Below the pieces are notes generated by a model. The model was not told where the DNA came from, searched no databases, and saw only the letters and a list, made by a program, of their open reading frames with translations. Source: Candidatus Microgenomatus sp. (GTDB lineage: Bacteria > Patescibacteriota > Minisyncoccia > UBA6257 > GWB1-50-10). From it: a stretch of DNA of 64,000 nucleotides. This document shows, one piece after another, positions 1 through 28,976 of this stretch (the stretch's first letter is position 1; each line of letters starts with the position of its first letter). The position numbers were made by a program, and so were the translations under genes. The stretch covers positions 23,582-87,581 of the forward strand of contig DYGI01000002.1 in assembly GCA_020724805.1 (NCBI GenBank), written 5' to 3'.

Positions 1-186
1 AGATATTGGAAACTTATCAAAGAATTCAAAGAAGTGACCGGCATTCCGATGCTTCTCAATACCTCATTCAATCTAAAAGGGGAGCCGATCGTAAACACTC
101 CCGAAGAAGCGTACCACACCTTCATGCGGAGTGGGCTTGATGTGCTGGTGATGGGGAATTATGTAGTCACGAAGCGCGCTACTTAA
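1..186 (+). CDS. Carbamoyltransferase (NodU/CmcH/HypF-like), C-terminal fragment; the 5' end lies outside the window
   Basis: Frame 1 reads RYWKLIKEFKEVTGIPMLLNTSFNLKGEPIVNTPEEAYHTFMRSGLDVLVMGNYVVTKRAT*. The LLNTSFNxKGEPIV...P.EA motif is the conserved C-terminus of this family. Stop TAA at 184-186. Confidence 0.5.
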   Translation, partial: RYWKLIKEFKEVTGIPMLLNTSFNLKGEPIVNTPEEAYHTFMRSGLDVLVMGNYVVTKRAT

Positions 187-1243
187 TGGAAAGCGTGCTG
201 AGTATGAGCGAGTTTGAGAGTATCTGGAACCCCGCGATGGCGGAAACGAGGAGCGCGTCAAAGGCGCCTGCGTCGGCACCGAGGAGCTTAAGTGCCAAGG
301 GAATGAGTATAAGGACGGCTCCCGCCGTAAGCGCGGTTTTGAGCCGGAAGGTCGCGTAGAATTTTCTCACGAACGGGACGTCCTCTTCGAACCGCGTGTG
401 GAGATAAGTCTTGGCGAAGAGTCCTACAAAGAACATCTGAACGCCGACGAGGGGGAAAAGTATTTTCACGGTTGCCGCGTTTAAAAATGTGCCGCCGGCT
501 TCATTCAGCGAAAGCCCGAGCGCTCCGAGCGCGAAGAGAATTCCGCCGGTAACGAAATATACGGAGAGTGGTGCCTGGAGTGCGATGTATTTAAGGTGTG
601 CGAAGCCGTCACGATAAGGCCGTAGTTTCGACGTGCCTCTCCGCGGTCGATACGTGATAGGAACCTCCGCATACGTGAGGCGTTTCTGCTTCGCCTTTAT
701 TAGCATTTCGGTTGCGAATTCCATCCCCGAAGTTTTAAGTGCGAGCGTGTCGTAGGTCGATCTTTTGAGTGCACGGAAACCCGACTGGCTGTCTGAGGTG
801 CGGATGCCGAAGAAAACGAAAAGGAGAAGGTTCAGTACGGGTGTGCCGAAGTAGCGATGGAGAAACGGCATAGCGCCAGGAACTATTGTGCCGTCGAGAC
901 GACTTCCGATCGCGATGTCCGCACGTTCAAGCGCTTTGAGGAGCGAGGGGATGGTGGAGAGGTCGTAGGTGCCGTCGGCATCAGAGTAAATTATTATTTC
1001 GCCGCGGGCGCATGCGATACCTTCACGGAGTGCGGTGCCGTAGCCGTCTTTCCCGTGAGGCACCACCGCGGCGCCGGCTTTCGTCGCTATGGCGGCGGAG
1101 CGGTCGCGTGAAGAATCCGCGACGATAATCTCGCCTTCGATGTGATGCGTTGCGAAGATTGTACGTGCTTCCTCTACGCAGCGTGCCACCGCAGCTTCCT
1201 CGTCGCGGCATGGGAACACGACGGAGACCGCAATTCGCTTCAT
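179..1243 (-). CDS. GT2 polyprenyl-phosphate sugar synthase (GtrB/ArnC/Dpm1-like) with C-terminal TM helices
   Basis: 354 aa. The N-terminal GT-A fold carries DAD/DxD (YSDADGTYD) and DSQSGFRA motifs. About 4 hydrophobic helices follow at the C-terminus. It is divergent from the GT-C gene at 1271. Confidence 0.8.
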   Translation of the reverse strand: MKRIAVSVVFPCRDEEAAVARCVEEARTIFATHHIEGEIIVADSSRDRSAAIATKAGAAVVPHGKDGYGTALREGIACARGEIIIYSDADGTYDLSTIPSLLKALERADIAIGSRLDGTIVPGAMPFLHRYFGTPVLNLLLFVFFGIRTSDSQSGFRALKRSTYDTLALKTSGMEFATEMLIKAKQKRLTYAEVPITYRPRRGTSKLRPYRDGFAHLKYIALQAPLSVYFVTGGILFALGALGLSLNEAGGTFLNAATVKILFPLVGVQMFFVGLFAKTYLHTRFEEDVPFVRKFYATFRLKTALTAGAVLILIPLALKLLGADAGAFDALLVSAIAGFQILSNSLILSTLSIK

Positions 1244-1270
1244 GTAAGTGTAGGGTATAATAAAACGTGA

Positions 1271-3061
1271 ATGGTGTCGATTTTAGTGGGAATTTTGACC
1301 GCGCCCATCCTTTTTTTTCTTCCCGGTTATTTTTGGTCGCTCTCGTTGCCGTGGGTTCGTGGTTTCACCGTGCGCCTTGCGGTGTCGCTTGTGACGAGCG
1401 TGGCACTTGGGGTGCTTTTAAGCTACGGAGCGGCACTCTTCGATATTCCGGTTGGTGCGGCACTTTTCGCTGGATTGCTTTTGACTTCGGCGGGTTTCGG
1501 ATGGACAGTGCGGCGTAGGCTTTTTGAGGCGGTTTCCGAGTGGAGGGAAGTGCCGCGGAGCGAAAAAATGATGGCGGCAGGCCTCGTTTTTCTCTGTGTG
1601 GTGGCGGGAATTTTTGTATCGTTGCCTCATTTCGGTTACCCGTGGCCCGTCCACGGGGACGAGTGGTGGAGTGTGGGTGAGGTGCAAAATCTTTTGGAGG
1701 GGCGGTCACTTGACACTCACCCGTATTTTCTCGACCCGCTCACGAATTACAAACCGGGACTCACCGCGTATCTTTCGGGAATTTTTTCGCTGTGGCGCGT
1801 CGACCCCGTCTCCGCATGGGCCCATCTTCCTGGCGCGAACCTTTTCTTTATCGCGCTCATTTCGTCACTCCTTCTTTTTTCGATAACGCGCGATAAATTA
1901 GTCGCGCTCGCGGTTCCGGTGTTCCTCGCGGCGGTGCGGTCGAACGCGTATATGCTCGGGTGGTGGTTTTTTGTTCCTTCGACATTCGCGTTCCTTTTTA
2001 TTATCCCGCTTGTCGTCACGGTTCCGAGTTGGGCTTCAAACCGGCGCGGCGTCGTCTGGGTGCTTGCGATATTCGGAGCGCTGGCTGCGGTGTATCTTCC
2101 TTTCGCACTTTTTCTTGCGCTCGCATTCGTTCCGCTCTTTTTCTTTTCGCTCCACGGAAACGCGCGAATGATTTTTTCGATTGCGGCGCTCATGTTGTTC
2201 GCCGCGCTCGTGTTCACCGGAGCGGAGCTAAGTCCTTATCGGGAATACTGGCGCCTCTCGTCGCTGTCTGCAGCGGAAGGATGGTTTGCCGCATTCACCA
2301 CCTCATTCTTCGTTCCTATTGATGCGACGGTTCATTTCGCACAGTCTCCTGGAGCGGTGAGCGTCACCGGGTTCGGCTTGCTCGTGTTTGCGCTCGTCGG
2401 CGTATGGAAGACGTGGCGGAGCGATTGGGTGCGCGGTCTCAGGTGGGTATTGCTCGCGGCGGCAATGAATGTGACGTTGGTTATTTTCGGAGGAGTCTCG
2501 TTTTTGCTTTTTCATCAGCGCGCATTCCATCTTTTTGCGGCGATGGCGGCGCTCTGGGCCGTGCTCGGTCTTGCGGTACTCGCGCGCGAATGGTATGGGT
2601 GGGTCACAGAAAAGTGGGGGATGAGGTGGCGACGCACGCTCGTGCTTGTTTTCGCCATACTCACGCTTTCTTTTGTGTTTTTCGGTTACTTTCGGTTGCC
2701 GGCTGGCACCAGTCTCTATTTTCTCGTGAACGAGAACGATCTTGTGGCACTCCGTTGGCTCCGCGGCGAGCCTACGCTCCGCGGGTTAAAGGTAGTGGCG
2801 GATCCCGATGTTGGTACGATAGTGACCCCCCTCACGCGGTTGGTCTCCAAGGTCACTCTTCGGACGGGACAAAATACCTCTTCTGTTATTAACCCCGCGT
2901 CGGGGCGCATCTCGTTTATTGAGAGCACCTGCGAAGAGAAACGGGAATATCTTACGAGGATGGATGCGGATATCGCCTATACGCGTACCTCCCAATCGTG
3001 CCCATTTTTGGAGGAGATATTCAATACGGAAGGGGTATTTATTTACCGTATCAACAAATAA
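1271..3061 (+). CDS. Polytopic membrane glycosyltransferase of GT-C type (PMT_2/ArnT/GT39-like)
   Basis: 596 aa with about 13 TM helices. The first extracytoplasmic loop contains HGDEWW (a DE motif). There is a C-terminal soluble domain of about 100 aa. A -10 TATAAT lies at 1253-1258 in the 27-nt divergent spacer. Confidence 0.45.
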   Translation: MVSILVGILTAPILFFLPGYFWSLSLPWVRGFTVRLAVSLVTSVALGVLLSYGAALFDIPVGAALFAGLLLTSAGFGWTVRRRLFEAVSEWREVPRSEKMMAAGLVFLCVVAGIFVSLPHFGYPWPVHGDEWWSVGEVQNLLEGRSLDTHPYFLDPLTNYKPGLTAYLSGIFSLWRVDPVSAWAHLPGANLFFIALISSLLLFSITRDKLVALAVPVFLAAVRSNAYMLGWWFFVPSTFAFLFIIPLVVTVPSWASNRRGVVWVLAIFGALAAVYLPFALFLALAFVPLFFFSLHGNARMIFSIAALMLFAALVFTGAELSPYREYWRLSSLSAAEGWFAAFTTSFFVPIDATVHFAQSPGAVSVTGFGLLVFALVGVWKTWRSDWVRGLRWVLLAAAMNVTLVIFGGVSFLLFHQRAFHLFAAMAALWAVLGLAVLAREWYGWVTEKWGMRWRRTLVLVFAILTLSFVFFGYFRLPAGTSLYFLVNENDLVALRWLRGEPTLRGLKVVADPDVGTIVTPLTRLVSKVTLRTGQNTSSVINPASGRISFIESTCEEKREYLTRMDADIAYTRTSQSCPFLEEIFNTEGVFIYRINK

Positions 3062-3115
3062 AGGCTTTTCCCCAGCGTACGGCACTTTCCCTAAACTTAG
3101 GTTTGATATAATGGA

Positions 3116-3559
3116 ATGAATCGAATGGAAGCCCCGACTCAAGCGAAATCGTCCCCCTGGCTCCTTATTGTGGGAGCGGTGGTGGTAGCGTTGGTGCTGT
3201 TCTTTGTTTTTTCGGACGGGTGGGGCGATGACACATCGGACAACGGACCGTTTGGCGTTATTGTGGCGCCGACGAATGGCCTCTCAATTGTGGAGATAAA
3301 AGCGGAGGGTGGAAAATTCTTACCGAACGAGATCACGGTGAAGCGTCCCGACCCCGTCATGATTATGTTCACCGCGGTTGATGATAAATACGACATCGGC
3401 TTTGAGGACCCAAAGATAGGATTTGACGTGATTGCGGAAGTTGGTGCGGTGCAGCGATTCGGTTTCGAAACAAGCGACAAAACCCCCGGTTTCTATACCT
3501 TCCACTGCATTGAGTTTTGCCCGAAAGGTGAAATGACGGGGACGTTGAAAATAGAATAA
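3116..3559 (+). CDS. TM-anchored cupredoxin-like protein (degenerate COX2 C-terminal/CuA-like domain)
   Basis: 147 aa with an N-terminal TM helix. The C-terminus reads FHCIEFCPKGEM, resembling the COX2 CuA loop GQCSELCG..H..M. Both His ligands are missing: Tyr sits at the first His position (DDKYDIGF) and Glu at the second. TATAAT at 3107-3112. Confidence 0.5.
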   Translation: MNRMEAPTQAKSSPWLLIVGAVVVALVLFFVFSDGWGDDTSDNGPFGVIVAPTNGLSIVEIKAEGGKFLPNEITVKRPDPVMIMFTAVDDKYDIGFEDPKIGFDVIAEVGAVQRFGFETSDKTPGFYTFHCIEFCPKGEMTGTLKIE

Positions 3560-3572
3560 CCTAATTTCCATC

Positions 3573-6500
3573 ATGAAACGCTTTGCATTGCTGGTCGGGA
3601 TAATCGCCCTCTTCGGGGCGATGGTGATTGCGAGTCCGCTTGATATGGAAGAAGTAAGAGCTGCGGTGTGGGACTGGGTCCCCGGTTCGGAGAGCGGCAT
3701 CTCCGCGACTCCCACTTCGCAGTCCGCCATCAGCGTGAGTTGGGGCGAGGACTATTATTCGACCGGTCCCGAAGACCTCTACCGTTGTTCGGGGAGCGGC
3801 AGTTGTACGCCGACTTATTTTGCGAACGTTTTCCAGAGTTCGAGCTATAACAACACCGGTCTCTCGTGTGGCACTACCTATCGCTACCGTGTCTGCTCCG
3901 ACTACGGTTGTACGAGCATCGCCACCGCATCGACCGACGCTTGTACGCCTGCAACGCCGAGCACACCTTCGGCAAGTGGTACGGGCCAGACGACGATGTC
4001 GGTGACGTGGGGTGCAGTGAGTGGCGCTTCTGGCTACCACGTGTATCGAAACAGCGGCTATATCGGCGCGAGCGGAAGTGCGAGCTACAACGATTCTGGT
4101 TTGAGTTGCGGTACGCAATATGGTTACGGGATCGTGGCGTACGTAACGACGAACGGTCGCACGTATTACTCAGGTACTTCTGCGACAGGATATGGGTCGA
4201 CGAACGCGTGTCCGAGCGTGCCCACTCCGCCTTCCGGAGTCACCGCCACTCCAACCTCACAGACCACGCTCATAGTTGGATGGACCGACAACTCCGGGAA
4301 CGAAACCGGCTTTAAGGTATACAGTGGTGACGGAGTTACGCCGCGGAGCACTACTGGCGCGAATATCACTTCGGTTGAAGAAGGAGGGTTGAGTTGTGCG
4401 ACAAGCTACGACAAATGGGGGGTGAGAGCGTATAACGCGGTCGGGGACTCGAACATCGCATTCAATACCCCCCCGAGTACGCTCGATGCCTGTACGCCCT
4501 CCGCGCCTTCAGCGTTGAGTTGCAGCCCGGCCTCGCAGAGTCAGATCAACTGTTCGTGGACTGATAACTCGAACAATCCCACCACCAACTACGAAACTGG
4601 TTTCCAGGTCGAGCGATGTAGCGGATCGGGGTGTTCGGGCTACTCCCTGGTAGGTTCACCAGGTCAGAACGTCACATCCTTCTCGAGTACGGGACTTGCT
4701 TCAGGTACGCTCTATCGTCACCGTGTGCGGGCTTACGTGAGCACAAACGGGAGAACTTACTACTCTGGTTACACTGCTGTTTCAGACGCAACGACCGATG
4801 CTGCGACTCCCGGCGTTCCGACGAGCGTTTCACAGACTCCGACGGGGCAGGCGACTGTTCAAATAAGTTGGGCGGGCGGTTCGCCTTCGACCCAGACAGG
4901 GTTCCGTGTTACGGATGCGCAAGGCGTGCAGGACTATAATTCTTCGACCTTTAATGCGACCGGACTTTGCAGCACTGCGGGTGCGGCACTCTCATGTGGT
5001 ACCTCGTGCACCGCAGTCAATGTAAGAGCATATGTCGATACGAATGGGCGGCGATACTATTCCAACACAGTTACGCCGACCGCGGTTACGCTGGATGCCT
5101 GTACGCCCGCGACCCCGACCGGAGTGAGTGCAAGCGCAGTAGCCGCAAACCAAGTGAACGTGTCGTGGGGCAATGTGGCGGGAGAAACGGGATATAAAAT
5201 CAGTCGATGTACGGGGAGTAGCTGTTCACCTGCGTCGTACACAACAAAAGCAGTTGATGTAACATCGCACCCTGACGGCAGTCTCTTAGAGAACACAATC
5301 CACCGGTATGCCGTGAGTTCGTATGTATCAACGAACGGGAGGGAATATGAATCAGATCTTTCTACGGTTGCGCAGGCAACCACGCAAGATCTCGCGGTTG
5401 CCATCACTACATACTCCAGCTATGTGAACGCGGCGAACCAGGCGGCGATAGCGGTTTCCGGCACCTGCAGCGGCGGGAGCGGTACGGTGAGTATTTCGAT
5501 AACATCGACCGGTGGCGGAGGACCGGTAACCGCCTCGCCTACTTGTTCCTCCGGTACCTGGTCGGCGGGTTCTCTGAACCTTACGCCGCTTGGCCAAGGA
5601 AATCTGACCTATGCTGCAACACTTACAGTGTCACCGAACACCGCGAACGCGAGTCAGCCGGGCGTGAAAGATGTTACCGCGCCCAGTGTAACTGCGCCGA
5701 CCGACGGAGGCACCTGGACTAATAACACCTCTCTCACTTTCAGCTCAACGCCGAGCGACACGGGCGGCTCTGGTCTCTCCGATTGCACCGGTCAGATAGA
5801 CGTCAACAACACCGACGGCGCCGGCCTCGTGTTCAACGGCTCGGTGGGCACCGATGGTGACCATACGTTTGTGGGAACCTCCGGTAACACTTATTACTAT
5901 CGGGTATCTTGTACTGATAATGCGGGCAACTCGAGCGGATATACCGCGTGGACTAACGGAATCGGTCTCGACACAGGAAACCCCTCGATCACTGGCCCAA
6001 CAGACACTGGCACCTGGACTAATAACACCTCTCTCACTTTCAGCTCGACGCCGAGCGACACGGGCGGCTCTGGTCTCTCCGATTGCACCGGTCAGATAGA
6101 CGTCAACAACACCGACGGCGCCGGCCTCGTGTTCAACGGCTCGGTGGGCACCGATGGTGACCATACTTTCATCGGGACTGAGGGGAATACCTACTATTAT
6201 CGGGTATCTTGTACTGATAATGCGAGCAACTCGAGCGGATATACCGCGTGGACTAATGGGATTGGCATTGATCTTACTGCGCCCGCGTTCAGCTCGAAGA
6301 CCGCCGCATGCGGTAGCTGGCAAAACACGAACTGGGTCTCGACCTTCACCTACACCGATTCGTTCTCGGGCATCGCGTCCGGGAACAACCCCACCTGCAC
6401 TATCTCGACCGATGGGGCGAGCCAGACCTGCAACGTTACTCCGAATGTCTGCGACAACGCGAGTAACTGCAACACGACGCTTATCACGAGTAACACCTGT

Positions 6501-7175
6501 AGCGTCGACAAGACGGCGCCGACCCCTAACCCCTCCACTGGCTCCGCAGCGAGTACCTGTGCGTATGACGCCGCGACTCGCTCTATCACGTGGACCATCA
6601 ATTCTTCCACGGATGTAACTTCCGGTCTGAATAGCTCGGGTTACTCCTTTACAAACGGTTCCACCTGGCAGGCCTCAAACCAGTTGGTGGAATCGGGAGT
6701 TACTACCGCAACAACCACTAAAACGGTAAGAGCACGCGACGTTGCGGACAACCAGACGACTGCGGGTACTATAACCGCCGGTCAAGTCGTATGCATACCG
6801 CCTCCCTCGAGTGCGCCCACATCGCCTTCCGGGTCACTCGACGGTGGGCAAGGGAGCGTGCTTCTGTCGTGGTCTGAAGTTCCAGATGTTTCAGGATATC
6901 TCATCGAGCAAAGCACGGATGGTGGATCGACATGGAATTACCTACCTGATGGTACGATTTCATTAGGGTCGGTTACCACCCATCCGGTTTCGAACTATGA
7001 AAACGAATGTCCTAAGGATTATCTCTATCGCGTGATTGCTTACACGACCGATGCGAGCTCTGATAATGATACGAACTGTCCTGTGGGGCAGCGTGATAAC
7101 CGGAAATGCTCTGCTCCTTCGGCCGCCATTACGGCACAAATTCGCTATTGCACCGGGTTCTTCTTGGGAGAGTAA
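3573..7175 (+). CDS. Giant secreted surface protein with multiple fibronectin-III-like repeats and Ser/Thr/Gly/Asn-rich, Cys-containing segments
   Basis: 1200 aa. Sec signal peptide MKRFALLVGIIALFGAMVIASP. At least 7 repeats of about 95 aa follow the pattern S.SW......GY.VYR....LsC.t.Y.YrV.AY. There are many NxS/T sequons. Two near-identical 100-aa internal repeats are present. No LPXTG, T9SS or TM anchor. Confidence 0.75.
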   Translation: MKRFALLVGIIALFGAMVIASPLDMEEVRAAVWDWVPGSESGISATPTSQSAISVSWGEDYYSTGPEDLYRCSGSGSCTPTYFANVFQSSSYNNTGLSCGTTYRYRVCSDYGCTSIATASTDACTPATPSTPSASGTGQTTMSVTWGAVSGASGYHVYRNSGYIGASGSASYNDSGLSCGTQYGYGIVAYVTTNGRTYYSGTSATGYGSTNACPSVPTPPSGVTATPTSQTTLIVGWTDNSGNETGFKVYSGDGVTPRSTTGANITSVEEGGLSCATSYDKWGVRAYNAVGDSNIAFNTPPSTLDACTPSAPSALSCSPASQSQINCSWTDNSNNPTTNYETGFQVERCSGSGCSGYSLVGSPGQNVTSFSSTGLASGTLYRHRVRAYVSTNGRTYYSGYTAVSDATTDAATPGVPTSVSQTPTGQATVQISWAGGSPSTQTGFRVTDAQGVQDYNSSTFNATGLCSTAGAALSCGTSCTAVNVRAYVDTNGRRYYSNTVTPTAVTLDACTPATPTGVSASAVAANQVNVSWGNVAGETGYKISRCTGSSCSPASYTTKAVDVTSHPDGSLLENTIHRYAVSSYVSTNGREYESDLSTVAQATTQDLAVAITTYSSYVNAANQAAIAVSGTCSGGSGTVSISITSTGGGGPVTASPTCSSGTWSAGSLNLTPLGQGNLTYAATLTVSPNTANASQPGVKDVTAPSVTAPTDGGTWTNNTSLTFSSTPSDTGGSGLSDCTGQIDVNNTDGAGLVFNGSVGTDGDHTFVGTSGNTYYYRVSCTDNAGNSSGYTAWTNGIGLDTGNPSITGPTDTGTWTNNTSLTFSSTPSDTGGSGLSDCTGQIDVNNTDGAGLVFNGSVGTDGDHTFIGTEGNTYYYRVSCTDNASNSSGYTAWTNGIGIDLTAPAFSSKTAACGSWQNTNWVSTFTYTDSFSGIASGNNPTCTISTDGASQTCNVTPNVCDNASNCNTTLITSNTCSVDKTAPTPNPSTGSAASTCAYDAATRSITWTINSSTDVTSGLNSSGYSFTNGSTWQASNQLVESGVTTATTTKTVRARDVADNQTTAGTITAGQVVCIPPPSSAPTSPSGSLDGGQGSVLLSWSEVPDVSGYLIEQSTDGGSTWNYLPDGTISLGSVTTHPVSNYENECPKDYLYRVIAYTTDASSDNDTNCPVGQRDNRKCSAPSAAITAQIRYCTGFFLGE
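5699..6298 (+). repeat. Two tandem 300-bp copies inside the giant ORF (period exactly 300 bp; about 160 bp identical bar 1 mismatch, remainder about 85%)
   Basis: cacctggactaataacacctctctcactttcagctc at 5711 recurs at 6011. The protein units are TWTNNTSLTFSSTPSDTGGSGLSDCTGQIDVNNTDGAGLVFNGSVGTDGDHTF, seen twice. Confidence 0.9.
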
Positions 7176-7188
7176 TCGATAGGGATTT

Positions 7189-7677
7189 ATGGAAAAGAAA
7201 AATATTTTTATAGGTGTAGGAGCGATTTTGGTGATTTTTGGGTTGGTGTGGTGGGGTACACAGATGGATGTTCGGAATACATCACAATCCGGCTCGAACA
7301 ACAACGAGGACGAAGAAGTGATTAATAATCTCCCACTTACCCCCGCGGCAGAGGAAGTTTCATTGCCGCAAAGTGATATACGAGGTGCCGCACTCAAAGT
7401 TTTCAATATAACGATGACAAGGGGGGGGATTGTGCCTTCCTCTATTACGGTGGGCGAAGGGGACCGCGTGCAGTTCAATGTGAAAGCGGAGGATGCTCCC
7501 TATGATTTTGAGTTGGAGGTTCCACACTATAATTTCCGTCTGGACGTTATTGAAGAGGGGGAAACGCGTCCCGTTGGTTTTAATGCTGAATCGATCGGAG
7601 AGTTTTCCTTTGGGTGCAGTCAGTTATGTCCGAATAATATTCGCCTCACCGCCCAACTCATTGTTTTGGATAGGTAG
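7189..7677 (+). CDS. TM-anchored cupredoxin-like protein, paralog of 3116-3559 (degenerate COX2-like)
   Basis: 162 aa with an N-terminal TM helix. Reads FSFGCSQLCPNN (CSELC-like) with no His or Met ligands. Tyr sits at the first His position (EDAPYDFEL). Confidence 0.5.
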   Translation: MEKKNIFIGVGAILVIFGLVWWGTQMDVRNTSQSGSNNNEDEEVINNLPLTPAAEEVSLPQSDIRGAALKVFNITMTRGGIVPSSITVGEGDRVQFNVKAEDAPYDFELEVPHYNFRLDVIEEGETRPVGFNAESIGEFSFGCSQLCPNNIRLTAQLIVLDR

Positions 7678-7720
7678 TAGAAGTAGTATCTTGTAGCTGG
7701 TATTTGGTATCGGAAATATA

Positions 7721-7747
7721 AAAGCCCGAGAATTTTCTCGGGCTTTT
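7721..7747. terminator. Bidirectional intrinsic terminator between the convergent genes 7189-7677(+) and 7774-9450(-)
   Basis: AAAAGCCCGAGAATTTTCTCGGGCTTTT, a GC stem flanked by A/T runs on both strands. Confidence 0.6.
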
Positions 7748-7773
7748 CACTACTAACTACTTACTACCAACTA

Positions 7774-9450
7774 CTACCTAAGCAGGAGCATCTTCTTCGT
7801 CTGGACGAATCCATTCGCCTCCAGCCGATAGAAGTACACTCCGCTCGGCAATCCTGATGCGTCCCACGTGACGCGGTGGGTCCCCCTCTCGAAAACATCC
7901 TCGGCGAGTATCGATACTTCGATGCCAAGAATGCTTGTTACCGAAAGGCGGACACGTTCCCTCGTCGGTATGGCGAACTCGATCGTGGTCGCAGGGTTGA
8001 AGGGGTTCGGGTAGTTCTGTGAAAGCGCGAACGTTTTCGGAACTTCCGTCTCCTCGACCTTTACTACACGATCAACGCGATATTCAGGCGAATCTACGCT
8101 GTCTGTCGCGCCGTGGATATCGGTGGCGACAAGGCGGAACTGGAAGGTATGGTCGTGCAGGGCGTACGGTATCGTTCCCCACACCTCGCTCTTTGTGGAG
8201 TCTACCGAAAGCCACGAGGGACTCTTGGCGGAATCGAGCCTTACCGTGACTGGGTCGCCATCAGTATCAAAGGCGAAGTATGTTCTTTTGAAGAACGTCC
8301 CTCCGTACGTCACGGTGTCGCCAGGAGAATAAAGGAGAATCGGGCTGTGGTTTGCCGGTTTGGAAGAAAGAATGCCTCTATATATTCCCTTCCATGTTCC
8401 GACGTATACCGCCGAGTCCTTCATTACGACCGACTGGACGCTTTCTCCTGGGAGACCTAAGAGCTCCCACGTCGAACCATCATCGGTTGACCGATAGAGA
8501 CCTCCATTGCCCATTTCTTGGCACGAGAAGACACTATTGTCGGCACCGAGAACCAGGCTCCAAACCTTCACGTTCGATTTCACCACGTGCCACGTTGCGC
8601 CGTAGTCAGTCGAGCGGTAGATGTTATTGGTCTTACTAAACGGTGGCTCGCCTGGCGGAGCATTGTACAAGAGTCCGCTAGCAAGAAGGTAGTTGTTTGG
8701 GAGTTTAACAAGTGTGGTAATTGATGCTCCCAGAGTGATTCCACTCGAGGATCGTGTCCAACTATCCCCATTGTCCGTGGAACGGTACACCCCGTTCGGT
8801 AGGAATTCGATTCCTCCTGGTCCTACTGTGATGTATGATGTGTCACCGATGAATGTTAGGGATCTGAACTCTTGCCGGTCGGGACCGTGACCACTATCTC
8901 CTGCGTGGGGATTGTCAGGGATTCCGTTTGTGAGCGTGTCCCACTTTACGCCCCGGTCAGTGGAGCGGAAGAGTCCTCGCTCTGTCGCGAAGAAGAAACC
9001 GCCAGTGCTCGGATTGACGCCAAGCTCAAAGCCCCATCTTGTAGCAGGTAACCCTACGCGAGCGCCACTCATTTTTTCCCACGTGTCGCCATCGTCAGTT
9101 GACCGATGAAGTCCGTAGGGAAAACCCGCTACATAAATGTATCCGGAGTCGTCCACCGCGAAGTTCCACCCCTCGCTGTCATAAAATCCACGACTCGGCC
9201 CCACTTCTACCCATGTTTTACCGTTGTCGCGCGATTCCCAAAGCCCTGATGTGTTGGTGAATGGAATTATGCCTGCAAGGATATGTCCTCGCTTGTTTAC
9301 CATAAGCGCTCTCACATTTATGTCCCAGTTGTTCAGTACCTGCTCGAACGCGATGGTGTCAGTACTCTTTGATAAGCTCTGTCCCTCCGCCACGAAGTGG
9401 GGGACGGACGCGGCGATCAGAATCGCCAAATATTTCGTCATGCGTTTCAT
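7774..9450 (-). CDS. BNR/Asp-box repeat beta-propeller protein (sialidase/Ycf48-like) with a T9SS (Por) C-terminal sorting domain
   Basis: Six SxDxGxTW Asp-boxes (SRDNGKTW, STDDGDTW, STDRGVKW, STDNGDSW, STDYGATW, STDDGSTW). Sec signal peptide. The C-terminus ...ALSQNYPNPFNPATTIEF...GVYFYRLEANGFVQTKKMLLLR matches the T9SS type-A CTD. The ATG at 9450 is preceded by AAAGGAG 8 nt upstream. GC is visibly lower than in neighbouring genes. Confidence 0.8.
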   Translation of the reverse strand: MKRMTKYLAILIAASVPHFVAEGQSLSKSTDTIAFEQVLNNWDINVRALMVNKRGHILAGIIPFTNTSGLWESRDNGKTWVEVGPSRGFYDSEGWNFAVDDSGYIYVAGFPYGLHRSTDDGDTWEKMSGARVGLPATRWGFELGVNPSTGGFFFATERGLFRSTDRGVKWDTLTNGIPDNPHAGDSGHGPDRQEFRSLTFIGDTSYITVGPGGIEFLPNGVYRSTDNGDSWTRSSSGITLGASITTLVKLPNNYLLASGLLYNAPPGEPPFSKTNNIYRSTDYGATWHVVKSNVKVWSLVLGADNSVFSCQEMGNGGLYRSTDDGSTWELLGLPGESVQSVVMKDSAVYVGTWKGIYRGILSSKPANHSPILLYSPGDTVTYGGTFFKRTYFAFDTDGDPVTVRLDSAKSPSWLSVDSTKSEVWGTIPYALHDHTFQFRLVATDIHGATDSVDSPEYRVDRVVKVEETEVPKTFALSQNYPNPFNPATTIEFAIPTRERVRLSVTSILGIEVSILAEDVFERGTHRVTWDASGLPSGVYFYRLEANGFVQTKKMLLLR

Positions 9451-9603
9451 CCCGCACACTCCTTTCCTTCCGTTCAGTTCAGTGATTTGTGATTGTTAAT
9501 ATTGCCCCTGTATTATACCAAATTATACAAAAAAGTCAAATTTTATGCGGGTTTTGGAGGAAATAATGTTTGTGGATAAGTTTTCATGAGAAGATACCAG
9601 AAT

Positions 9604-9712
9604 TTGGTATACTAGGTTTCGAAGAGCAATGAACTTGCCCTTCGCGTGAAGTAAGTGAGGTACTTCGCGCCGCGAGTGAGGGCCGCCTTCGGGCGGCCCT
9701 CGCTGTTTGTTG
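9604..9712 (+). ncRNA. Candidate small RNA of about 90 nt: extended -10 promoter (TGGTATACT, 9604-9612), then a transcript ending in a GC stem with UUCG tetraloop and a U-run (9672-9712)
   Basis: No ORF longer than 6 codons (ATGAACTTGCCCTTCGCGTGA). The terminator is AGTGAGGGCCGCC-TTCG-GGCGGCCCTCGCT followed by GTTTGTTG. The same TGGTATACT box drives the leaderless gene at 12415. Confidence 0.3.
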
Positions 9713-9782
9713 AAATCGTCGCGTGAAACTCATATTGATTTTTACCTACCTCCCACCTCTACCGTCTCGGCAGTCAAAGAAT

Positions 9783-9859: not shown

Positions 9860-10186
9860 ATGGCCACGTTCCATTGCTGGGCCGACCGTGCGTCGCTCAC
9901 CGACAGTGAGCTCACGAGTGACGACCGAGCACGGGGAGCGGTCGCCGCTTGCCCCGAGTGTGGAAGGTTATACGACGAACATGGCAGAGAGCTGGGCGCG
10001 CCCGTTTCTGTATCTGTCACGGTACGCGCCTCATCAGCCCTGCCGTTTTCCGCAGAGGAGGAAAAACCGCGCGTCGAGAAAAAACCGCGCGCGAAGAAAA
10101 TGAACGCTGCGGAACGGAAGAAGATGCTTCTTCAGAAGCGCCTGAGGCTCGAGCAGCGGCACAACCCGTATTTTCCTGGGAGATGA
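9860..10186 (+). CDS. Hypothetical small protein with a CxxC zinc-ribbon-like motif and a Lys/Arg-rich tail
   Basis: 108 aa with strong SD (AAGGAGG, 5 nt before the ATG). Reads CPECGRLYDEHGRE. The C-terminus is basic (KKPRAKKMNAAERKKMLLQKRLRLEQRH). A terminator-like hairpin plus T-run lies at 10196-10245. Confidence 0.5.
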   Translation: MATFHCWADRASLTDSELTSDDRARGAVAACPECGRLYDEHGRELGAPVSVSVTVRASSALPFSAEEEKPRVEKKPRAKKMNAAERKKMLLQKRLRLEQRHNPYFPGR

Positions 10187-12414: not shown

Positions 12415-13098
12415 ATGCCACTCTTTCATACGAGCGAACCGGAAAAAACCGCCGCTATTCAAAATCTTTTTGCGGCCAGTACGCCGAGCCCCGCATTCTT
12501 TTTCATGGTAGTCTGCTCCGTAATCGTTGCGGTGCTTGGCGTCCTTATCAACAACATTCCCATCGTTATCGGAAGCATGTTAATTGCACCGCTTCTTTCT
12601 CCGGTGCTTTCTTTTGCGCTTGGCATTGTGATTGCGGACTTTTCCCTTGTGGCGCGTTCCGGACTCATCATTATGCGCTCCATTGTGTTTGCACTGGTGG
12701 GCGCGATTATCGTTTCGTTTCTTTTTGGCGGTCTTGCATTCCCCGCGCTTCTTCTCGCAACCGCCGAGCCTTCCATCGCCTATCTTGTGGTTTCGTTTGT
12801 GGCGGGTGCCGCGGCATCGTTTGCATTCATTAAAGAGCAGCTTTCGGTGACGCTTCCGGGAATCGCCATTGCGGTAACTCTTATCCCGCCGCTTGCGGTA
12901 ACAGGCATCGCGCTTGCGGGACTTGAAATAGAAATTGTAAGCCGCGCATTTCTTCTTTTTCTTGTTAACATGGCGGGTATCGTGTTTGGAAGTATGGTGG
13001 TGTTTGCGCTCGCGAATTTCCACACCAAAAAAGAATTTGCCGCGCGCGAGGTGAAAAAAGAAGAGAAGCAATTAGAGAAAGAAAACGAAAAGAAATGA
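12415..13098 (+). CDS. DUF389-family integral membrane protein
   Basis: 227 aa and multi-TM, with an IGSMLIAPLLSP motif and a Lys/Glu-rich C-terminal tail. It is leaderless: TGGTATACT at 12399-12407, then the ATG 7 nt later. Confidence 0.6.
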   Translation: MPLFHTSEPEKTAAIQNLFAASTPSPAFFFMVVCSVIVAVLGVLINNIPIVIGSMLIAPLLSPVLSFALGIVIADFSLVARSGLIIMRSIVFALVGAIIVSFLFGGLAFPALLLATAEPSIAYLVVSFVAGAAASFAFIKEQLSVTLPGIAIAVTLIPPLAVTGIALAGLEIEIVSRAFLLFLVNMAGIVFGSMVVFALANFHTKKEFAAREVKKEEKQLEKENEKK

Positions 13099-14777: not shown

Positions 14778-17471
14778 ATGAGACGTTGGTACGAAGAAAC
14801 CGTTCCCGCCGTATGGGCCCATACGGGGAGCGCAATGACCGGACTCCCGGAAGAAGAGGCCGCACGGCGGCTCCAGGTGGCGGGGCCCAATGTGTTGCCG
14901 GAGCCGCCTTCGCGCGGCCCCGTTTCCATTTTTATCGACCAGTTTCGGAGCCCGCTCATCTATCTCCTTCTCGTGGCGGGCGCCATCCTCGCATTTCTCG
15001 GTGATTTTACCGATGGCGTGATCGTCGGCGGGGTGCTTCTCATTAATGCGATCATAGGCGCGGTCCAGGAGGGGCGTGCGCAAAACACGCTCCGGGCGCT
15101 CCAAAAATTCGTTGAGACGAAAGCCACCGTCGTGCGCGGAGGGCGCGAGAGGGTCATCCCGGACCGGGATGTCGCGCCGGGCGATGTGGTGGTGCTGACC
15201 GAGGGCGAGAAGGTACCCGCAGACCTTCGTGTGGTCGTAGCGCATGACCTTCGTGCGAACGAGTCCGCATTGACCGGCGAATCGGAGCCGGTCCACAAGA
15301 CGGACGCGGCGCTCGCTCCCCGCGCGAAGGATGCCCTGCCGCTCTCCGCGCAGGAAAATATGGTTTTTCGCGGTACCACCATCGTGGGCGGGAACGGCTT
15401 CGGTGTCGCGGTCGCGACCGGGAGCGATACCGAACTCGGGAAAATATCGGAGGCCATTGTGGGGCTCGATACCGAGATTCCTCTCAAGGGAAACCTTCGC
15501 GTGTTGGCGCGCGTGCTTACGGTCGGCACTATAGTGTTCCTCTTTCTTCTGTTTTTGGTCGGTGTGTTCCTCTACGACTATTCATACGTTCATATGTTCA
15601 CGCTCGGCGTGGCGCTCGCGGTTTCCTTCATCCCCGAGGGGTTGCCGGTGGCGCTCACCCTTATCCTCGCGACTGGCGTGTGGCGCATGGCAAAGCAAAA
15701 CGCGCTTGTGAAAAAACTCCATGCGGTCGAGGCGCTTGGCCAAGCCCGTATCATTGCGGTCGACAAAACCGGCACCCTTACGAGAAACGAGCTCCTCGTG
15801 ACCGAGGTGGTATCGTGCGGAACGAAGTTCCGCATTACCGGAGAAGGATATGAGCCGGTGGGTGCGTTCTTTAACGAAAAAAAGGAAGCTGTGGAGCCTC
15901 TGCGCAATCGCGTGCTCATGCCCGCGCTTCATGCCGCGGCGTTCACCGCGACCGCGCGCCTTTCCTACGACGAAGGTTCGAAACAATGGCGAGTGGGAGG
16001 TGACCCCACCGAGGCGGCTCTCCTGGTGCTTGCAGAAAAAGCTGGGCTCCGCGACGCGGCGTGGGAGGCGGCGCACCCGCTCCTCAATGAGGTGCCGTTC
16101 AGTTACATACATAAGTTTCGTGCGGCGGTGCGGAAAGACGACCGGGGCAAGGACGCGCTTTTTGTGATGGGTGCCCCCGAAGCCGTAATGGCGCGCGCAA
16201 AAACTTTTCTTTCCTCGCCGCGGGTCACCGCGCGTTTCACTGCGGGCGAGCGCGAATCGGCGACCGAAACGCTCCACGCGATGCTCCGGCGCGGACTCCG
16301 TGTCCTTGCGTTCGGGTATTCGACAAGGGTTCCGAAAAAACTTTCTACCGAAACTCTGCCGTCGCTTACTTTCGGGGGCTTCATTGGAATGAAGGATGCT
16401 CTTCGGGCTGAGGTACCCGAAGCATTGCGTCGTGCTGAGGCTGCAGGCATGCGGGTGGTGATGGTAACCGGTGACCACAAGCTCACCGCAGAGACCATCG
16501 CGCGCGAGGCGGGGATTTTAAAAAAGAACGGAAAGGTCCTTACCGGCGAGGATATTGAGACGATGACGAGCGAACAAGTAGCGAACGCGCTCGGAGAGAC
16601 GGATGTATTCGCGCGCGTGACTCCAGCACATAAACTTCGGATTATCGAGGCGTTCCGCGCGCGCGGTGAGATCATCGCGATGACAGGTGACGGCGTGAAC
16701 GACGCGCCGCCTTTGGTGGCGGCCGACCTCGGGGTGGCGATGGGACGTTCGGGCACCGAGGTGGCGAAGGAAGCGGCGGACATCGTACTCCTCGACGACA
16801 ACTTCGGGAGCATCGTTTCTGCGGTGGAAGAAGGGAGAAACATTTATCGCACGCTTCGCAAGGTGCTCCAGTATCTCCTCTCGACGAATATGAGCGAGGT
16901 CTTCCTCATCACCTTTGCCATCTTTGCAGGATTCGCACTTCCACTCGTTCCCTCGCAGATCATCTGGCTCAATTTTGTGACCGACACTTTTCTCGTCGCT
17001 GCGCTTGCGATGGAACCGAAGGAACAAGACCTCCTCACGGGGCCCGCCCGGCGCCCGCGGCGCGCGCTCGTAGATGGGCGGATGGCGGCGGAAAGCGTGA
17101 TAATGGGGCTCTTCATGATGGTTGGGACGTTTCTAGTGTTCTTGCGCTATCTCGAGGGTGGGGATCTCATAAAAGCGCAGACTATGGCACTTACCGTGCT
17201 TGCGGCGTTCCAGTGGTTTCGCGCATGGACCATGCGCTCGGACACGCGTTCACTTGCCACCATCCGGCCCGGCACCAATCCGTTCCTCATCGGGGCAACC
17301 GCGCTCGTGGTGGTATTCCAAATCGCCGTGCTCGAGTTTCCATTTCTGAACGAAGTGTTTCATACCACACCGCTCTCTTTACTCGAGTGGGGAATCGCGC
17401 TTCTCGTCGGTCTCACCGTAGTGGGAGCGGATGAAATCCGCCTTTACCTTCGGCGCCGGTTTGCGTGGTAG
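14778..17471 (+). CDS. P-type cation-transporting ATPase (type IIA/IIIB, Ca2+/Mg2+-like)
   Basis: 897 aa with DKTGTLT phosphorylation motif, MTGDGVNDAP hinge, TGES and 10 TM segments. Confidence 0.9.
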   Translation: MRRWYEETVPAVWAHTGSAMTGLPEEEAARRLQVAGPNVLPEPPSRGPVSIFIDQFRSPLIYLLLVAGAILAFLGDFTDGVIVGGVLLINAIIGAVQEGRAQNTLRALQKFVETKATVVRGGRERVIPDRDVAPGDVVVLTEGEKVPADLRVVVAHDLRANESALTGESEPVHKTDAALAPRAKDALPLSAQENMVFRGTTIVGGNGFGVAVATGSDTELGKISEAIVGLDTEIPLKGNLRVLARVLTVGTIVFLFLLFLVGVFLYDYSYVHMFTLGVALAVSFIPEGLPVALTLILATGVWRMAKQNALVKKLHAVEALGQARIIAVDKTGTLTRNELLVTEVVSCGTKFRITGEGYEPVGAFFNEKKEAVEPLRNRVLMPALHAAAFTATARLSYDEGSKQWRVGGDPTEAALLVLAEKAGLRDAAWEAAHPLLNEVPFSYIHKFRAAVRKDDRGKDALFVMGAPEAVMARAKTFLSSPRVTARFTAGERESATETLHAMLRRGLRVLAFGYSTRVPKKLSTETLPSLTFGGFIGMKDALRAEVPEALRRAEAAGMRVVMVTGDHKLTAETIAREAGILKKNGKVLTGEDIETMTSEQVANALGETDVFARVTPAHKLRIIEAFRARGEIIAMTGDGVNDAPPLVAADLGVAMGRSGTEVAKEAADIVLLDDNFGSIVSAVEEGRNIYRTLRKVLQYLLSTNMSEVFLITFAIFAGFALPLVPSQIIWLNFVTDTFLVAALAMEPKEQDLLTGPARRPRRALVDGRMAAESVIMGLFMMVGTFLVFLRYLEGGDLIKAQTMALTVLAAFQWFRAWTMRSDTRSLATIRPGTNPFLIGATALVVVFQIAVLEFPFLNEVFHTTPLSLLEWGIALLVGLTVVGADEIRLYLRRRFAW

Positions 17472-28214: not shown

Positions 28215-28976
28215 ATGAAATACTCACACCTCAGCGACACCATTTCTATAAAGACCGTTTCCGAGAAAGGGAATGTGGGCGTATTCCATATGGAAGGCCT
28301 GTACACCGGATACGGCCACACGCTCGGTACCGCGTTCCGCCGGACGCTTCTTTCTTCGCTTCCCGGCGCGGCAATCACCCAAATAAAGATAAAAGGAGTG
28401 GACCATGAATTTTCCACCGTTCCCGGCATGCTTGAGGACATAGTGGAATTTACCCTGAACTTGAAAAAAGTTCGGTTTCATTTCTTTGCGGACGAACCAC
28501 AGGTCCTCACCCTCAAGGTGAAGGGCGAACGTGTGGTGACCTCCGCGGATATCGAGGCGACCACGCTTGCAAAAGTGGTGAATCCCAACCTCCACCTCGC
28601 GACCCTTACGAAAAAAACCGCCGAGCTTGATATGGAGCTCACCGTTGAAAAGGGCTTGGGGTATGTGCCCGCGGAGGCGCGTCGCCTTGAGCGGCTCCCG
28701 GTAGGAACTGTGGTGCTCGACGCGATTTTTTCGCCTGTGGTCAGAGTGGCCGCAACGGTAGAGAACATGCGCGTAGGGGACCGTACCGACTTCAACCGTC
28801 TCATTTTGGAAGTGGAGACCGACGGCTCCATCTCTCCTTCCGAAGCGCTCCATAAAGCAGGGAATATTCTTAAGGATCACTTTGAAAAAACAGCCGCAGT
28901 CGAGGTAAAGCCGCTCGCGGAAGCACCCAGTGAAGAGAAGCGCGAAACGAAGCGGAAGAAAGTAACGAAGGAGTAA
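28215..28976 (+). CDS. rpoA: DNA-directed RNA polymerase alpha subunit, N-terminal domain only (no alpha-CTD)
   Basis: 253 aa. The alpha-NTD dimerisation and assembly fold is present. The protein ends in a Lys/Glu-rich tail, and rplQ starts 3 nt later. Confidence 0.9.
   Translation: MKYSHLSDTISIKTVSEKGNVGVFHMEGLYTGYGHTLGTAFRRTLLSSLPGAAITQIKIKGVDHEFSTVPGMLEDIVEFTLNLKKVRFHFFADEPQVLTLKVKGERVVTSADIEATTLAKVVNPNLHLATLTKKTAELDMELTVEKGLGYVPAEARRLERLPVGTVVLDAIFSPVVRVAATVENMRVGDRTDFNRLILEVETDGSISPSEALHKAGNILKDHFEKTAAVEVKPLAEAPSEEKRETKRKKVTKE

Follow-up and report, generated by a model that had tools for sequence, protein, structure and literature searches.

Sequence comparisons indicate that a canonical cargo protein of the kind that type IX secretion systems (T9SS) export is maintained in lineages without an outer membrane. 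We found its gene in a 64-kb window of contig DYGI01000002.1 (the window being the whole 64,000-nucleotide stretch that was analysed), which belongs to a bacterium of the Candidate Phyla Radiation (CPR). The protein combines a signal peptide, a BNR/Asp-box beta-propeller, an immunoglobulin (Ig)-like domain and a T9SS type-A C-terminal domain (CTD), and we refer to its gene as the BNR-CTD gene. We consider it probable that this gene is an old import, that its product is now a propeller-type binding protein exported by the Sec pathway, and that the CTD has a role independent of T9SS.

The BNR-CTD gene lies at 7774-9450 on the reverse strand (-). Its open reading frame (ORF) spans 7774-9459 (-), and the stop codon occupies 7774-7776. 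We regard the ATG at 9450 as the most plausible start, because the Shine-Dalgarno (SD) sequence AAAGGAG stands 8 nt upstream of it, whereas the alternative GTG would be only 1 nt away from the SD. The resulting coding sequence (CDS) of 558 amino acids (aa) was identified from the ORF list and from Pfam and NCBIfam matches, and the identical protein is present in three assemblies. A previous reading of the DNA letters (hereafter the sequence-only reading) had described a protein of 558 aa with six Asp-boxes and a type-A CTD, and this description was borne out. A regular expression found six Asp-boxes (S-x-D-x-G-x-x-W) at residues 73, 117, 163, 224, 280 and 321, and the same part of the protein matched PF15902 (Sortilin-Vps10; 45.9 bits, cut-off 33) and PF02012 (BNR; 36.9 bits, cut-off 27). 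An AlphaFold2 model of the full-length protein, built on 50 homologues, contained seven four-stranded blades (predicted local distance difference test (pLDDT) scores of 75-92 over aa 45-360). That is, the repeated motif sits on a closed propeller, as is characteristic of BNR/Asp-box beta-propellers, and we place this seven-bladed propeller at aa ~24-365 (8356-9381, (-)) on the basis of the regular expression, the model and Foldseek.

The propeller is preceded by a Sec-type signal peptide (aa 1-23; 9382-9450, (-)), MKRMTKYLAILIAASVPHFVAEG followed by QS, which was recognised by inspection from a basic n-region, a hydrophobic h-region spanning aa 7-16 and a cleavage motif of the form A-x-G. On inspection, the protein has neither a lipobox nor a C-terminal LPXTG motif, and no transmembrane segment besides the signal peptide. 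An Ig-like He_PIG spacer (aa ~366-470; 8041-8355, (-)) follows the propeller; it matched PF05345 at aa 372-452 with 31.3 bits (cut-off 24), and the AlphaFold2 model was poor in this region. The T9SS type-A CTD (Por_Secre_tail, aa 471-558; 7777-8040, (-)) exceeded the cut-offs of both PF18962 (32.8 bits, cut-off 27, aa 480-554) and TIGR04183 (37.5 bits, cut-off 23). It ends with FVQTKKMLLLR at the very last residue, aa 558, opposite the N terminus that by inspection is of the Sec type. Type-A CTDs fold into a compact Ig-like, seven-stranded (3+4) beta-sandwich (PMC11285876). In the full-length model, seven beta-strands were predicted over aa 475-556 with pLDDT scores of 88-97. A single-sequence model of the CTD by itself was of low confidence (pLDDT 64.5) and gave no significant match in the PDB.

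The age of the gene could be judged from its best match overall, P0316 (362 bits), which is 39% identical by BLASTP over 576 columns and 43% identical at MAFFT-aligned positions. P0316 is encoded on L176, a 17-kb Logan contig of CPR origin (GC 0.558) that comes from an unrelated data set. The gene order of L176 is that of the window: BNR-CTD gene, cupredoxin B, a giant protein rich in fn3 domains (fn3 giant), cupredoxin A, a DUF6541 membrane protein and a family 2 glycosyltransferase (GT2). Identities between these neighbours amount to 57% for cupredoxin B, 46-56% for the fn3 giant, 49-58% for cupredoxin A, 47% for the DUF6541 protein and 65% for the GT2. The 270 nt upstream of the two BNR-CTD genes are 77% identical, including the -35 and -10 boxes, the SD-containing stretch AAAGGAGTGTGCGGGATG and a structured element further upstream. 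At synonymous sites, the proportion of differences (pS) is 0.72 for the BNR-CTD gene versus 0.69-0.81 for its five neighbours, so that all of them are saturated alike. Because of this orthologue, the shared gene order and the saturated synonymous sites, we conclude that the gene predates the split between these two far-diverged CPR genomes and has since been passed on together with its neighbours. A word-indexed search had missed P0316 (39-43% identical) twice, and it was recovered only by an exhaustive HMMER scan; its recovery moved our reading from a unique recent import to an old resident.

Comparison of the two CPR proteins by domain showed 57% identity for the CTD, 50% for the Ig-like domain and 36% for the propeller, and the CTD exceeds the propeller significantly (chi-square ~12, calculated from counts). 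For the CTD, the nonsynonymous divergence (dN) is 0.34 and the synonymous divergence (dS) is saturated, which gives a dN/dS ratio of ~0.18 or less. We then compared the domain with CTDs of the type found in the Fibrobacteres-Chlorobi-Bacteroidetes (FCB) superphylum. Relative to 156 FCB-type CTDs that were held out in a two-fold cross-validation, the target's domain scored at the 41st percentile, that of the archaeal homologue P0001 at the 81st and that of a further homologue, P0021, at the 57th. With a CTD hidden Markov model (HMM), the target obtained 121-123 bits and P0316 122.6 bits; target, P0316 and P0001 together span 121-128 bits, and the scores of the target and P0001 are inside the range of the held-out FCB domains (median 125 bits). 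These values indicate that the CTD is not decaying and is kept under purifying selection, and its conservation leads us to argue for a role of its own.

Could this role still be that of a recognition signal? Two features have been described as functional determinants of CTDs (PMC11285876), namely the Gly with which beta4 begins (motif L-beta3-beta4) and a C-terminal strand that contains Lys (motif C-t.). The last strand of the target, FVQTKKMLLLR, has the counterparts FVQTKKILLLR (P0316) and YINTKKMLLLK (the archaeal P0001), and the L-beta3-beta4 Gly is retained; in the target it is G509, which is invariant across an alignment of 50 sequences. PorV binds CTD cargo at the cell surface. With the reported T9SS recognition parts being the best kept ones, the CTD might dock on the PorV/PorU/PorZ surface complex of an FCB host, or it might be read by an undescribed CTD receptor or sorting system in CPR bacteria and in DPANN archaea (named after Diapherotrites, Parvarchaeota, Aenigmarchaeota, Nanoarchaeota and Nanohaloarchaeota). 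Such a live signal would suit the occurrence of the same protein type in two kinds of ultra-small organisms without an outer membrane and the assumed host dependence of this CPR bacterium; CPR bacteria are described as symbionts in part of the literature. However, nothing ties this bacterium to an FCB host, the hosts of DPANN are usually archaea, and strand beta7 lies in the core of the fold, where conservation is expected anyway. In addition, CTDs are poorly interchangeable even between species of Bacteroidota (PMC11285876). We therefore think a live signal unlikely and favour a T9SS-independent role of the domain.

Next to its CPR orthologue, the protein has a very large family of relatives. 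The word-indexed search of 5.8 billion proteins returned 5,440 matches at E <= 1e-3. Nearly all of the best 120 carry PF18962, and the matches include thousands of proteins of ~700 aa with a double propeller and a CTD, at 25-32% identity to the target. Named members belong to KSB1, Ignavibacteriales (Ignavibacteria), Bacteroidota and Neomarinimicrobiota (Marinimicrobia), all of them FCB phyla. The exhaustive HMMER search of 1.84 billion representatives yielded 18,589 cluster representatives at E <= 1e-30 and additionally revealed the single-propeller members P0316, P0315, P0384, P0386 and P0352. Among the best matches of either search, no homologue exceeded 43% identity. The sequence-only reading had proposed to identify the donor phylum by homology; the named homologues do point to FCB phyla, but no donor could be named.

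The closest relatives, P0316 (CPR), P0315, P0021, P0384 and P0001, have a single propeller and rank above the 700-aa double-propeller forms of the FCB phyla. This ranking could mean that proteins with a single propeller and a CTD form a subfamily native to CPR and DPANN, or moving mainly among them, with the FCB proteins being distant cousins and not donors. The host type is known for just two of the eight members, though. One of these is P0001, which we found on an archaeal contig (L164, 5165-6769; also L174 and L175), where its gene follows the exosome operon and rpoK, 27 nt downstream of the latter. The asparaginyl-tRNA synthetase of this contig is at least 90% identical to a protein of a 'Nanoarchaeota archaeon', and its source is the 0.1-µm fraction of Hainich groundwater; P0001 is present in three assemblies. 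A DPANN archaeon thus encodes, in P0001, a BNR protein that has one propeller and whose T9SS-type CTD is fully canonical; P0151 represents the same protein with a different start call. The contig has a GC content of ~30%, and with 0.23 the GC content at third codon positions (GC3) of the P0001 gene is the highest on it, versus 0.11-0.16 in its neighbours, which fits an import there, too. P0021 is encoded on a 2.6-kb contig between two arrays of clustered regularly interspaced short palindromic repeats (CRISPR; L168, 1-357 and 2430-2616) with the type I-E-like repeat GTGTTCCCCGTGCGTGCGGGGATGAACCG. Arrays of this type are rare in CPR. An AT-rich, repeat-containing stretch resembling a leader follows downstream of the P0021 gene. 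Finally, the CTD consensus of these proteins is indistinguishable from that of the FCB proteins. A native subfamily consequently appears rather improbable to us, and a foreign origin of the BNR-CTD gene is likely from the distribution of its homologues.

The genomic position of the gene is consistent with such an origin. Its left neighbour is a resident, convergently transcribed gene for a cupredoxin-like protein of 162 aa (7189-7677, (+); PF13473), which has orthologues in L176 (57% identity), L169 (32%) and L005 (29%). To the right lies hyp108 (9860-10186, (+)), a gene for a small CPECG zinc-ribbon-like protein that is resident upstream of uvrC and outside the acquired DNA; its orthologue in L171 is 57% identical and likewise located directly upstream of uvrC. 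We used UvrC to find related loci. A search of GTDB species representatives and JGI metagenomes gave relatives of ~55% identity with one loosely syntenic locus (L005), and closer ones were found through the protein database. In L171 (UvrC 86% identical), a surface protein of at least 790 aa precedes the hyp108 orthologue and uvrC. L169 (81%) contains the cupredoxin gene, three unrelated genes ending in GtrA, a conserved element, PaaX_M, a 201-aa gene and a 1428-aa LTD protein, and L173 (78%) is arranged like L169. In L005 (54%), the cupredoxin gene is followed by genes for two large secreted proteins. The right flank is conserved among the relatives and comprises uvrC, two small reverse genes, in some cases DUF389, an FAD oxidase, in some cases a P-type ATPase, and secDF, followed by a sigma-r4/HARE-HTH protein, DUF8128 and a TrwB-like gene.

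The BNR-CTD gene is present in this slot in the window and in L176, and it is missing from the slot of L169, L171, L173 and L005, so that a conserved locus is polymorphic for the presence of the gene. At the nucleotide level, homology to the relatives ends at the cupredoxin stop codon (7677/7678) and resumes at ~9600 with the conserved element, or at 9781 in the case of L171. Lineage-specific DNA was thereby mapped to ~7678-9599, almost exactly where the sequence-only reading had drawn an island (7678-9620). From this comparison, the slot appears to serve this group of CPR bacteria as a general insertion point for genes of surface proteins. Because the family is huge and diverse in FCB phyla and very rare in CPR, and because the slot is polymorphic, an ancient import into this hypervariable slot is our best reading. 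Giant secreted proteins with LTD domains are encoded upstream of uvrC in the relatives (L169, 5597-9883; L173, 1880-6046; L171, 2-2374; L005, 7948-9924).

Composition, by contrast, says little about the origin of the gene. Its GC content is 0.536 versus a median of 0.551 (standard deviation (sd) 0.026; 19th percentile of the 54 genes in the window), and its GC3 is 0.603 versus a median of 0.615 (sd 0.052; 33rd percentile). Both values deviate by less than one sd, at variance with the lower GC and weaker GC3 bias that had been claimed for the gene. Synonymous codon usage is deviant, with GTA, ACA, AGA, CCA and GGA being enriched (z 7.3, second of the 54 genes). However, the resident fn3 giant next to it is more deviant and tops the list (z 10.6), and part of the codon shift tracks the G/C skew of the minus strand; we therefore discarded codon usage as a sign of recent transfer. 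The same applies to the tetranucleotides: a strand-symmetric chi-square value at the 93rd percentile was due only to amino-acid and codon content, and the TETRA z-score correlation was ordinary. The compositional check suggested along with the sequence-only reading (GC3, codon usage, tetranucleotides) thus lent no support to a transfer. At the borders of the gene we found no flanking direct repeats, no integrase and no transposase, and two candidate repeats, D1 and D2, turned out to be merely Asp-box codons. A phage search gave no match, and a plasmid search gave only weak partial matches to the propeller (at most 31% identity). Neither atypical composition nor mobility genes or repeats at the borders mark this DNA as a genomic island.

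These observations, together with the orthologue in L176, bear on whether the gene is a recent arrival from FCB bacteria and its CTD an orphan signal that has not yet decayed, that is, a non-functional relic. The FCB type of the best non-CPR homologues, the rank of the codon usage and the absence of the gene from the slot in L169, L171 and L173 are all compatible with this idea. On the other hand, a recent arrival should have neither a positional orthologue with synonymous divergence as saturated as in the flanking residents, nor GC and GC3 at host values, nor a CTD that is better conserved than the other domains and has a canonical score in either CPR copy; the lack of any homologue above 43% identity among the best matches of both large searches also speaks against it. 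We consider a relic quite improbable. Of the horizontal acquisition proposed by the sequence-only reading, the acquisition itself is probably correct, given the FCB names in the family and the polymorphic slot, while its recent date and the orphan state of the CTD did not hold.

An out-of-place domain in a metagenome-assembled genome usually first raises the suspicion of an assembly or binning artefact, here of an FCB fragment joined to a CPR contig. We found the exact protein and both flanks in JGI 3300029893 (570,864-bp contig Ga0246236_1000004), in JGI 3300029892 (13.4-kb contig) and in Logan SRR5011275 (39.8-kb contig). Hence the junctions on either side are identical in three independent assemblies, which come from one SRA run and at least two JGI samples; within the reach of sequence data, this rules out a chimeric contig. 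A fourth data set, unrelated to these, has the orthologue among the same CPR genes; in addition, the GC3 of the gene matches that of the host, and promoter and flanks are conserved. An artefact has next to no probability in view of these data, and the idea that the genome might not be what it seems found no support. RpoA and MreB of the window fall into clusters at >=90% identity with NCBI proteins of 'Candidatus Brennerbacteria', and the nearest UvrC relatives are all Patescibacteria. These protein matches identify the host as a genuine CPR bacterium (Ca. Brennerbacteria).

The gene content agrees with the reduced lineage that the sequence-only reading had recognised. Pfam assigned window proteins to ribosomal proteins, aminoacyl-tRNA synthetases, SecDF, two MreB, MreC, two penicillin-binding proteins (PBPs), a MurE-like ligase, DnaK/DnaJ/GrpE, GyrB, a type IV pilin-like N_methyl protein and a TrwB-like ATPase. 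RpoA (28215-28976) has 253 aa, with the dimerisation and insert domains only and without the alpha-CTD (PF03118); since its relatives in the 90% cluster have 254-255 aa, this truncation is a trait of the lineage and not an assembly error. The two mreB paralogues are located ~3.7 kb apart (31585-32604 and 36272-37303), the second being followed by mreC, a 159-aa gene and the PBP2 gene.

In Pfam scans of ~50 window proteins, we detected no outer-membrane, lipopolysaccharide (LPS), Bam, Lol or T9SS family, and neither these proteins nor a flank of ~2.4 kb included a T9SS core gene. An HMM built from 121 CTDs found the target as the sole CTD of the window, and it found none in ~69 kb of Brennerbacteria relatives and none in ~2.2 Mb of other loci apart from homologues. 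The earlier statement that nothing else in the window suggests an outer membrane or T9SS is thus confirmed. CPR bacteria are treated as a monoderm clade (bioRxiv 10.1101/2021.05.31.446380), and T9SS has been reported from Bacteroidota or the FCB superphylum only (PMC11611037, PMC12398890). For these two reasons, the CTD would not be able to act as an outer-membrane translocation signal here. If a T9SS-like apparatus or an outer membrane were encoded elsewhere, the CTD would be an ordinary secretion signal, which would account for its constraint, and the inspected ~66 kb are only part of a genome that measures at least 571 kb. Against this stand the family content of the window, the monoderm nature of the clade and the restriction of T9SS to Bacteroidota and FCB. 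Organisms with T9SS typically have many CTD proteins, whereas the window holds a single one and the relatives none. We rate an ordinary secretion signal as very unlikely and infer that T9SS is absent from the rest of the genome as well.

From all this, we propose the following scenario for an old import. An ancestor of a sub-lineage of Ca. Brennerbacteria would have acquired the gene horizontally from the large FCB family of 'Ycf48-like BNR propeller + CTD' cargo. The gene would have been inserted into the hypervariable surface-protein slot between the cupredoxin gene and hyp108-uvrC, and it would have resided there long enough for its synonymous sites to become saturated. It would now be transcribed from its own promoter and translated in an SD-dependent manner. 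Sec export and cleavage of the signal peptide would release an extracellular protein with a mass of ~56 kDa as predicted from the sequence. Its CTD may then serve as a folded Ig-like module for stability, surface retention or binding, independently of T9SS, and the propeller may be the ligand-binding part (for a glycan or a protein), as in Ycf48 or DAIP, in support of an episymbiotic or scavenging lifestyle.

Several points weigh against this scenario. The signal peptide was assigned by eye, without a dedicated predictor. Conservation of the CTD could stem from fold stability alone. The donor and the direction of transfer are deduced from the size of the family and the names of its members only, and the scan for T9SS and outer-membrane genes covered the 64-kb window plus the ~2.4-kb flank of the genome of at least 571 kb. 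Moreover, a sequence search of the PDB with the target gave zero matches, and no ligand or catalytic site can be assigned to the propeller, the structural matches of which are generic propellers.

These structural matches, obtained with Foldseek against the PDB, comprise BNR or Reg_prop propellers, namely the BT4663 sensor domain, DAIP, Ycf48, GH74, sortilin and PorZ. The target-normalised TM-score (TMt) was 0.66 for Ycf48 and 0.63 for DAIP and only ~0.3 for GH74. Ycf48/HCF136 (PDB 5OJP) and DAIP (PDB 5FZP/6FHP) are the best matches for a single domain (TM-score 0.61-0.66 over ~340 residues). Both are binding proteins and not enzymes, but they share just 16-19% identity with the target and lack an Ig domain and a CTD, and the likeness does not imply a shared ligand. 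Three enzymatic assignments were rejected. The profile of the F510_1955 glycosylhydrolase (NF045728) reached 85 bits versus a cut-off of 175 and covered only aa 65-175. A sialidase-type enzyme was dismissed since BNR_2 reached 17 bits versus a cut-off of 31 (the catalytic residues were not individually inspected). A GH74 xyloglucanase does not agree with the single propeller and the low TMt, and no enzyme family in Pfam or NCBIfam matched over the full length. PorZ of Porphyromonas gingivalis (PDB 5M11), a component of T9SS surface attachment, resembles the target in that propellers are followed by a CTD (Foldseek E 2.6e-10, 12% identity). It differs by having two propellers and an uncleaved CTD, whereas the target has one propeller, and T9SS partners are not known in its genome.

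The closest known counterparts are the T9SS type-A BNR-propeller cargo proteins of FCB bacteria (Ignavibacteria, KSB1, Bacteroidota, Marinimicrobia), which are annotated as 'YCF48-related / photosystem II stability factor-like' and likewise consist of a signal peptide, an Asp-box propeller and a CTD. The target shares with them the signature QNYPNPFNPxTTIxF...GxYFYRL...TKKxxLL[KR], and the score of its CTD is mid-range among those of FCB proteins. In contrast, the FCB proteins usually are double propellers of ~700 aa, compared to the single propeller and 558 aa of the target, and identity to named members does not exceed 32%. Furthermore, the target is the only CTD protein in its neighbourhood and its host is a CPR bacterium, in which neither an outer membrane nor T9SS is expected. 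Outside the FCB group, C25 peptidases of Thermoprofundales archaea (MBG-D, short for Marine Benthic Group D) have been annotated with a Por CTD (PMC6461988). These peptidases and the DPANN protein P0001 are similar to the target in that a secreted protein of a lineage without an outer membrane bears a C-terminal T9SS-type CTD. Our searches of the literature for T9SS or the CTD in CPR, Patescibacteria or DPANN did not turn up any treatment of such cases, apart from a single annotation in a table on an MBG-D archaeon. Published cases of Por CTDs outside T9SS are annotations only, while the orthology between two CPR genomes permits a test for constraint.

The T9SS CTD is routinely read as proof of outer-membrane export of the Bacteroidota type, and annotation pipelines name proteins accordingly. 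Our results suggest that 'T9SS type A sorting domain-containing protein' is an unsafe functional call outside FCB genomes, and that it is also unsafe as a flag for contamination of a bin. They also provide a concrete case for other roles of the CTD, such as fold stabilisation, adhesion or recognition of the T9SS surface complex of a host. If an FCB host complex did recognise the CTD, a protein of the symbiont could be captured or anchored on the host surface. The locus would also document a passage of genes out of diderm bacteria and into episymbiotic CPR bacteria, at hypervariable surface-protein loci that probably mediate contact with the host.

Judging from the signals around it, the BNR-CTD gene forms a separate transcription unit that is equipped with a sigma-70 promoter, a strong SD and a bidirectional terminator. 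The predicted promoter (9512-9539, (-)) is close to consensus, with 11 of 12 matches (TTGACT-16 nt-(TG)TATAAT, read as TTGACT-16-TGnTATAAT from 9539 to 9512), and both hexamers are kept in L176. The SD AAAGGAG is situated at 9459-9465 (-), within the stretch that is identical in L176. Both this strong SD and the AT-rich 5' region at 9480-9620 (GC 0.31 versus a median of 0.50 in other intergenic regions) had been pointed out before and were confirmed. A contrast between this SD and mostly leaderless resident genes had been proposed as well. The contrast exists, but it is not unique to the target: SD cores of at least 6 nt precede four of the 54 window genes, including the target and the resident hyp108, and cores of at least 4 nt precede 22 of 54, versus 25% at random positions. 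At many window genes, a TATAAT-like box precedes the start codon by 6-9 nt and an SD is missing, for instance upstream of 1271, 3116, 12415, 24093 and 27566, which fits widespread leaderless or very short-leader transcripts.

Downstream, the gene shares a predicted bidirectional intrinsic terminator with the convergent cupredoxin gene (7720-7747), a hairpin with 13-bp arms of 100% complementarity and flanking A and T runs, and L176 has an equivalent hairpin in the same place. GTAGTA/TACTAC inverted runs occur on either side of it, in line with the repeat runs that had been noticed around a bidirectional terminator. An extended imperfect palindrome of ~110 nt (7671-7780), detected by folding, encloses the terminator and both stop codons with its GGTAGTAG...CTACTACC arms; the fold energy is -43.8 kcal/mol (z = -6.8). 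The 8-mer GGTAGTAG occurs at just two sites in the window, which are the two arms of the palindrome and overlap both stop codons. The outer arms were not seen at this position in L176, where a GTAGTA-rich run is present in the 5' region instead.

The right edge of the lineage-specific DNA is formed by the conserved structured non-coding element (9600-9712), which was delineated by nucleotide comparison. It is 81-82% identical to intergenic DNA beside GtrA/PaaX_M in L173 and L169. Copies were located in L176 (1-80), L173 (138-229) and L169 (4021-4098), with 77-82% identity over four genomes of the Brennerbacteria type, in which the synonymous sites of coding sequences are saturated. The element can form two or three hairpins, including GAGGGCCGCC-N4-GGCGGCCCTC, and shows some compensatory changes. 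It lies between GtrA and PaaX_M in L169 and L173 and is orphaned beside the BNR-CTD promoter in the window. No Rfam family matched 9600-9712, and a sub-threshold match to PhrS was taken as chance. Judging from its conservation and folding, the element could be the remnant of a terminator or an undescribed regulatory RNA.

Both flanks contain further variable or duplicated genes. On the right, DUF389 (12415-13098) and the P-type cation ATPase (14778-17471) vary in presence among L169, L170, L172 and L173 within the otherwise conserved uvrC - FAD-oxidase - secDF block. On the left, a conserved surface-related cluster (179-7677 in the window and 1997-8588 in L176) encodes the GT2, the polytopic DUF6541 membrane protein, a cupredoxin, the fn3 giant and a second cupredoxin. 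The fn3 giant measures 1200 aa in the window and 910 aa in L176, and it contains a tandem duplication of ~115 aa (aa ~708-950).

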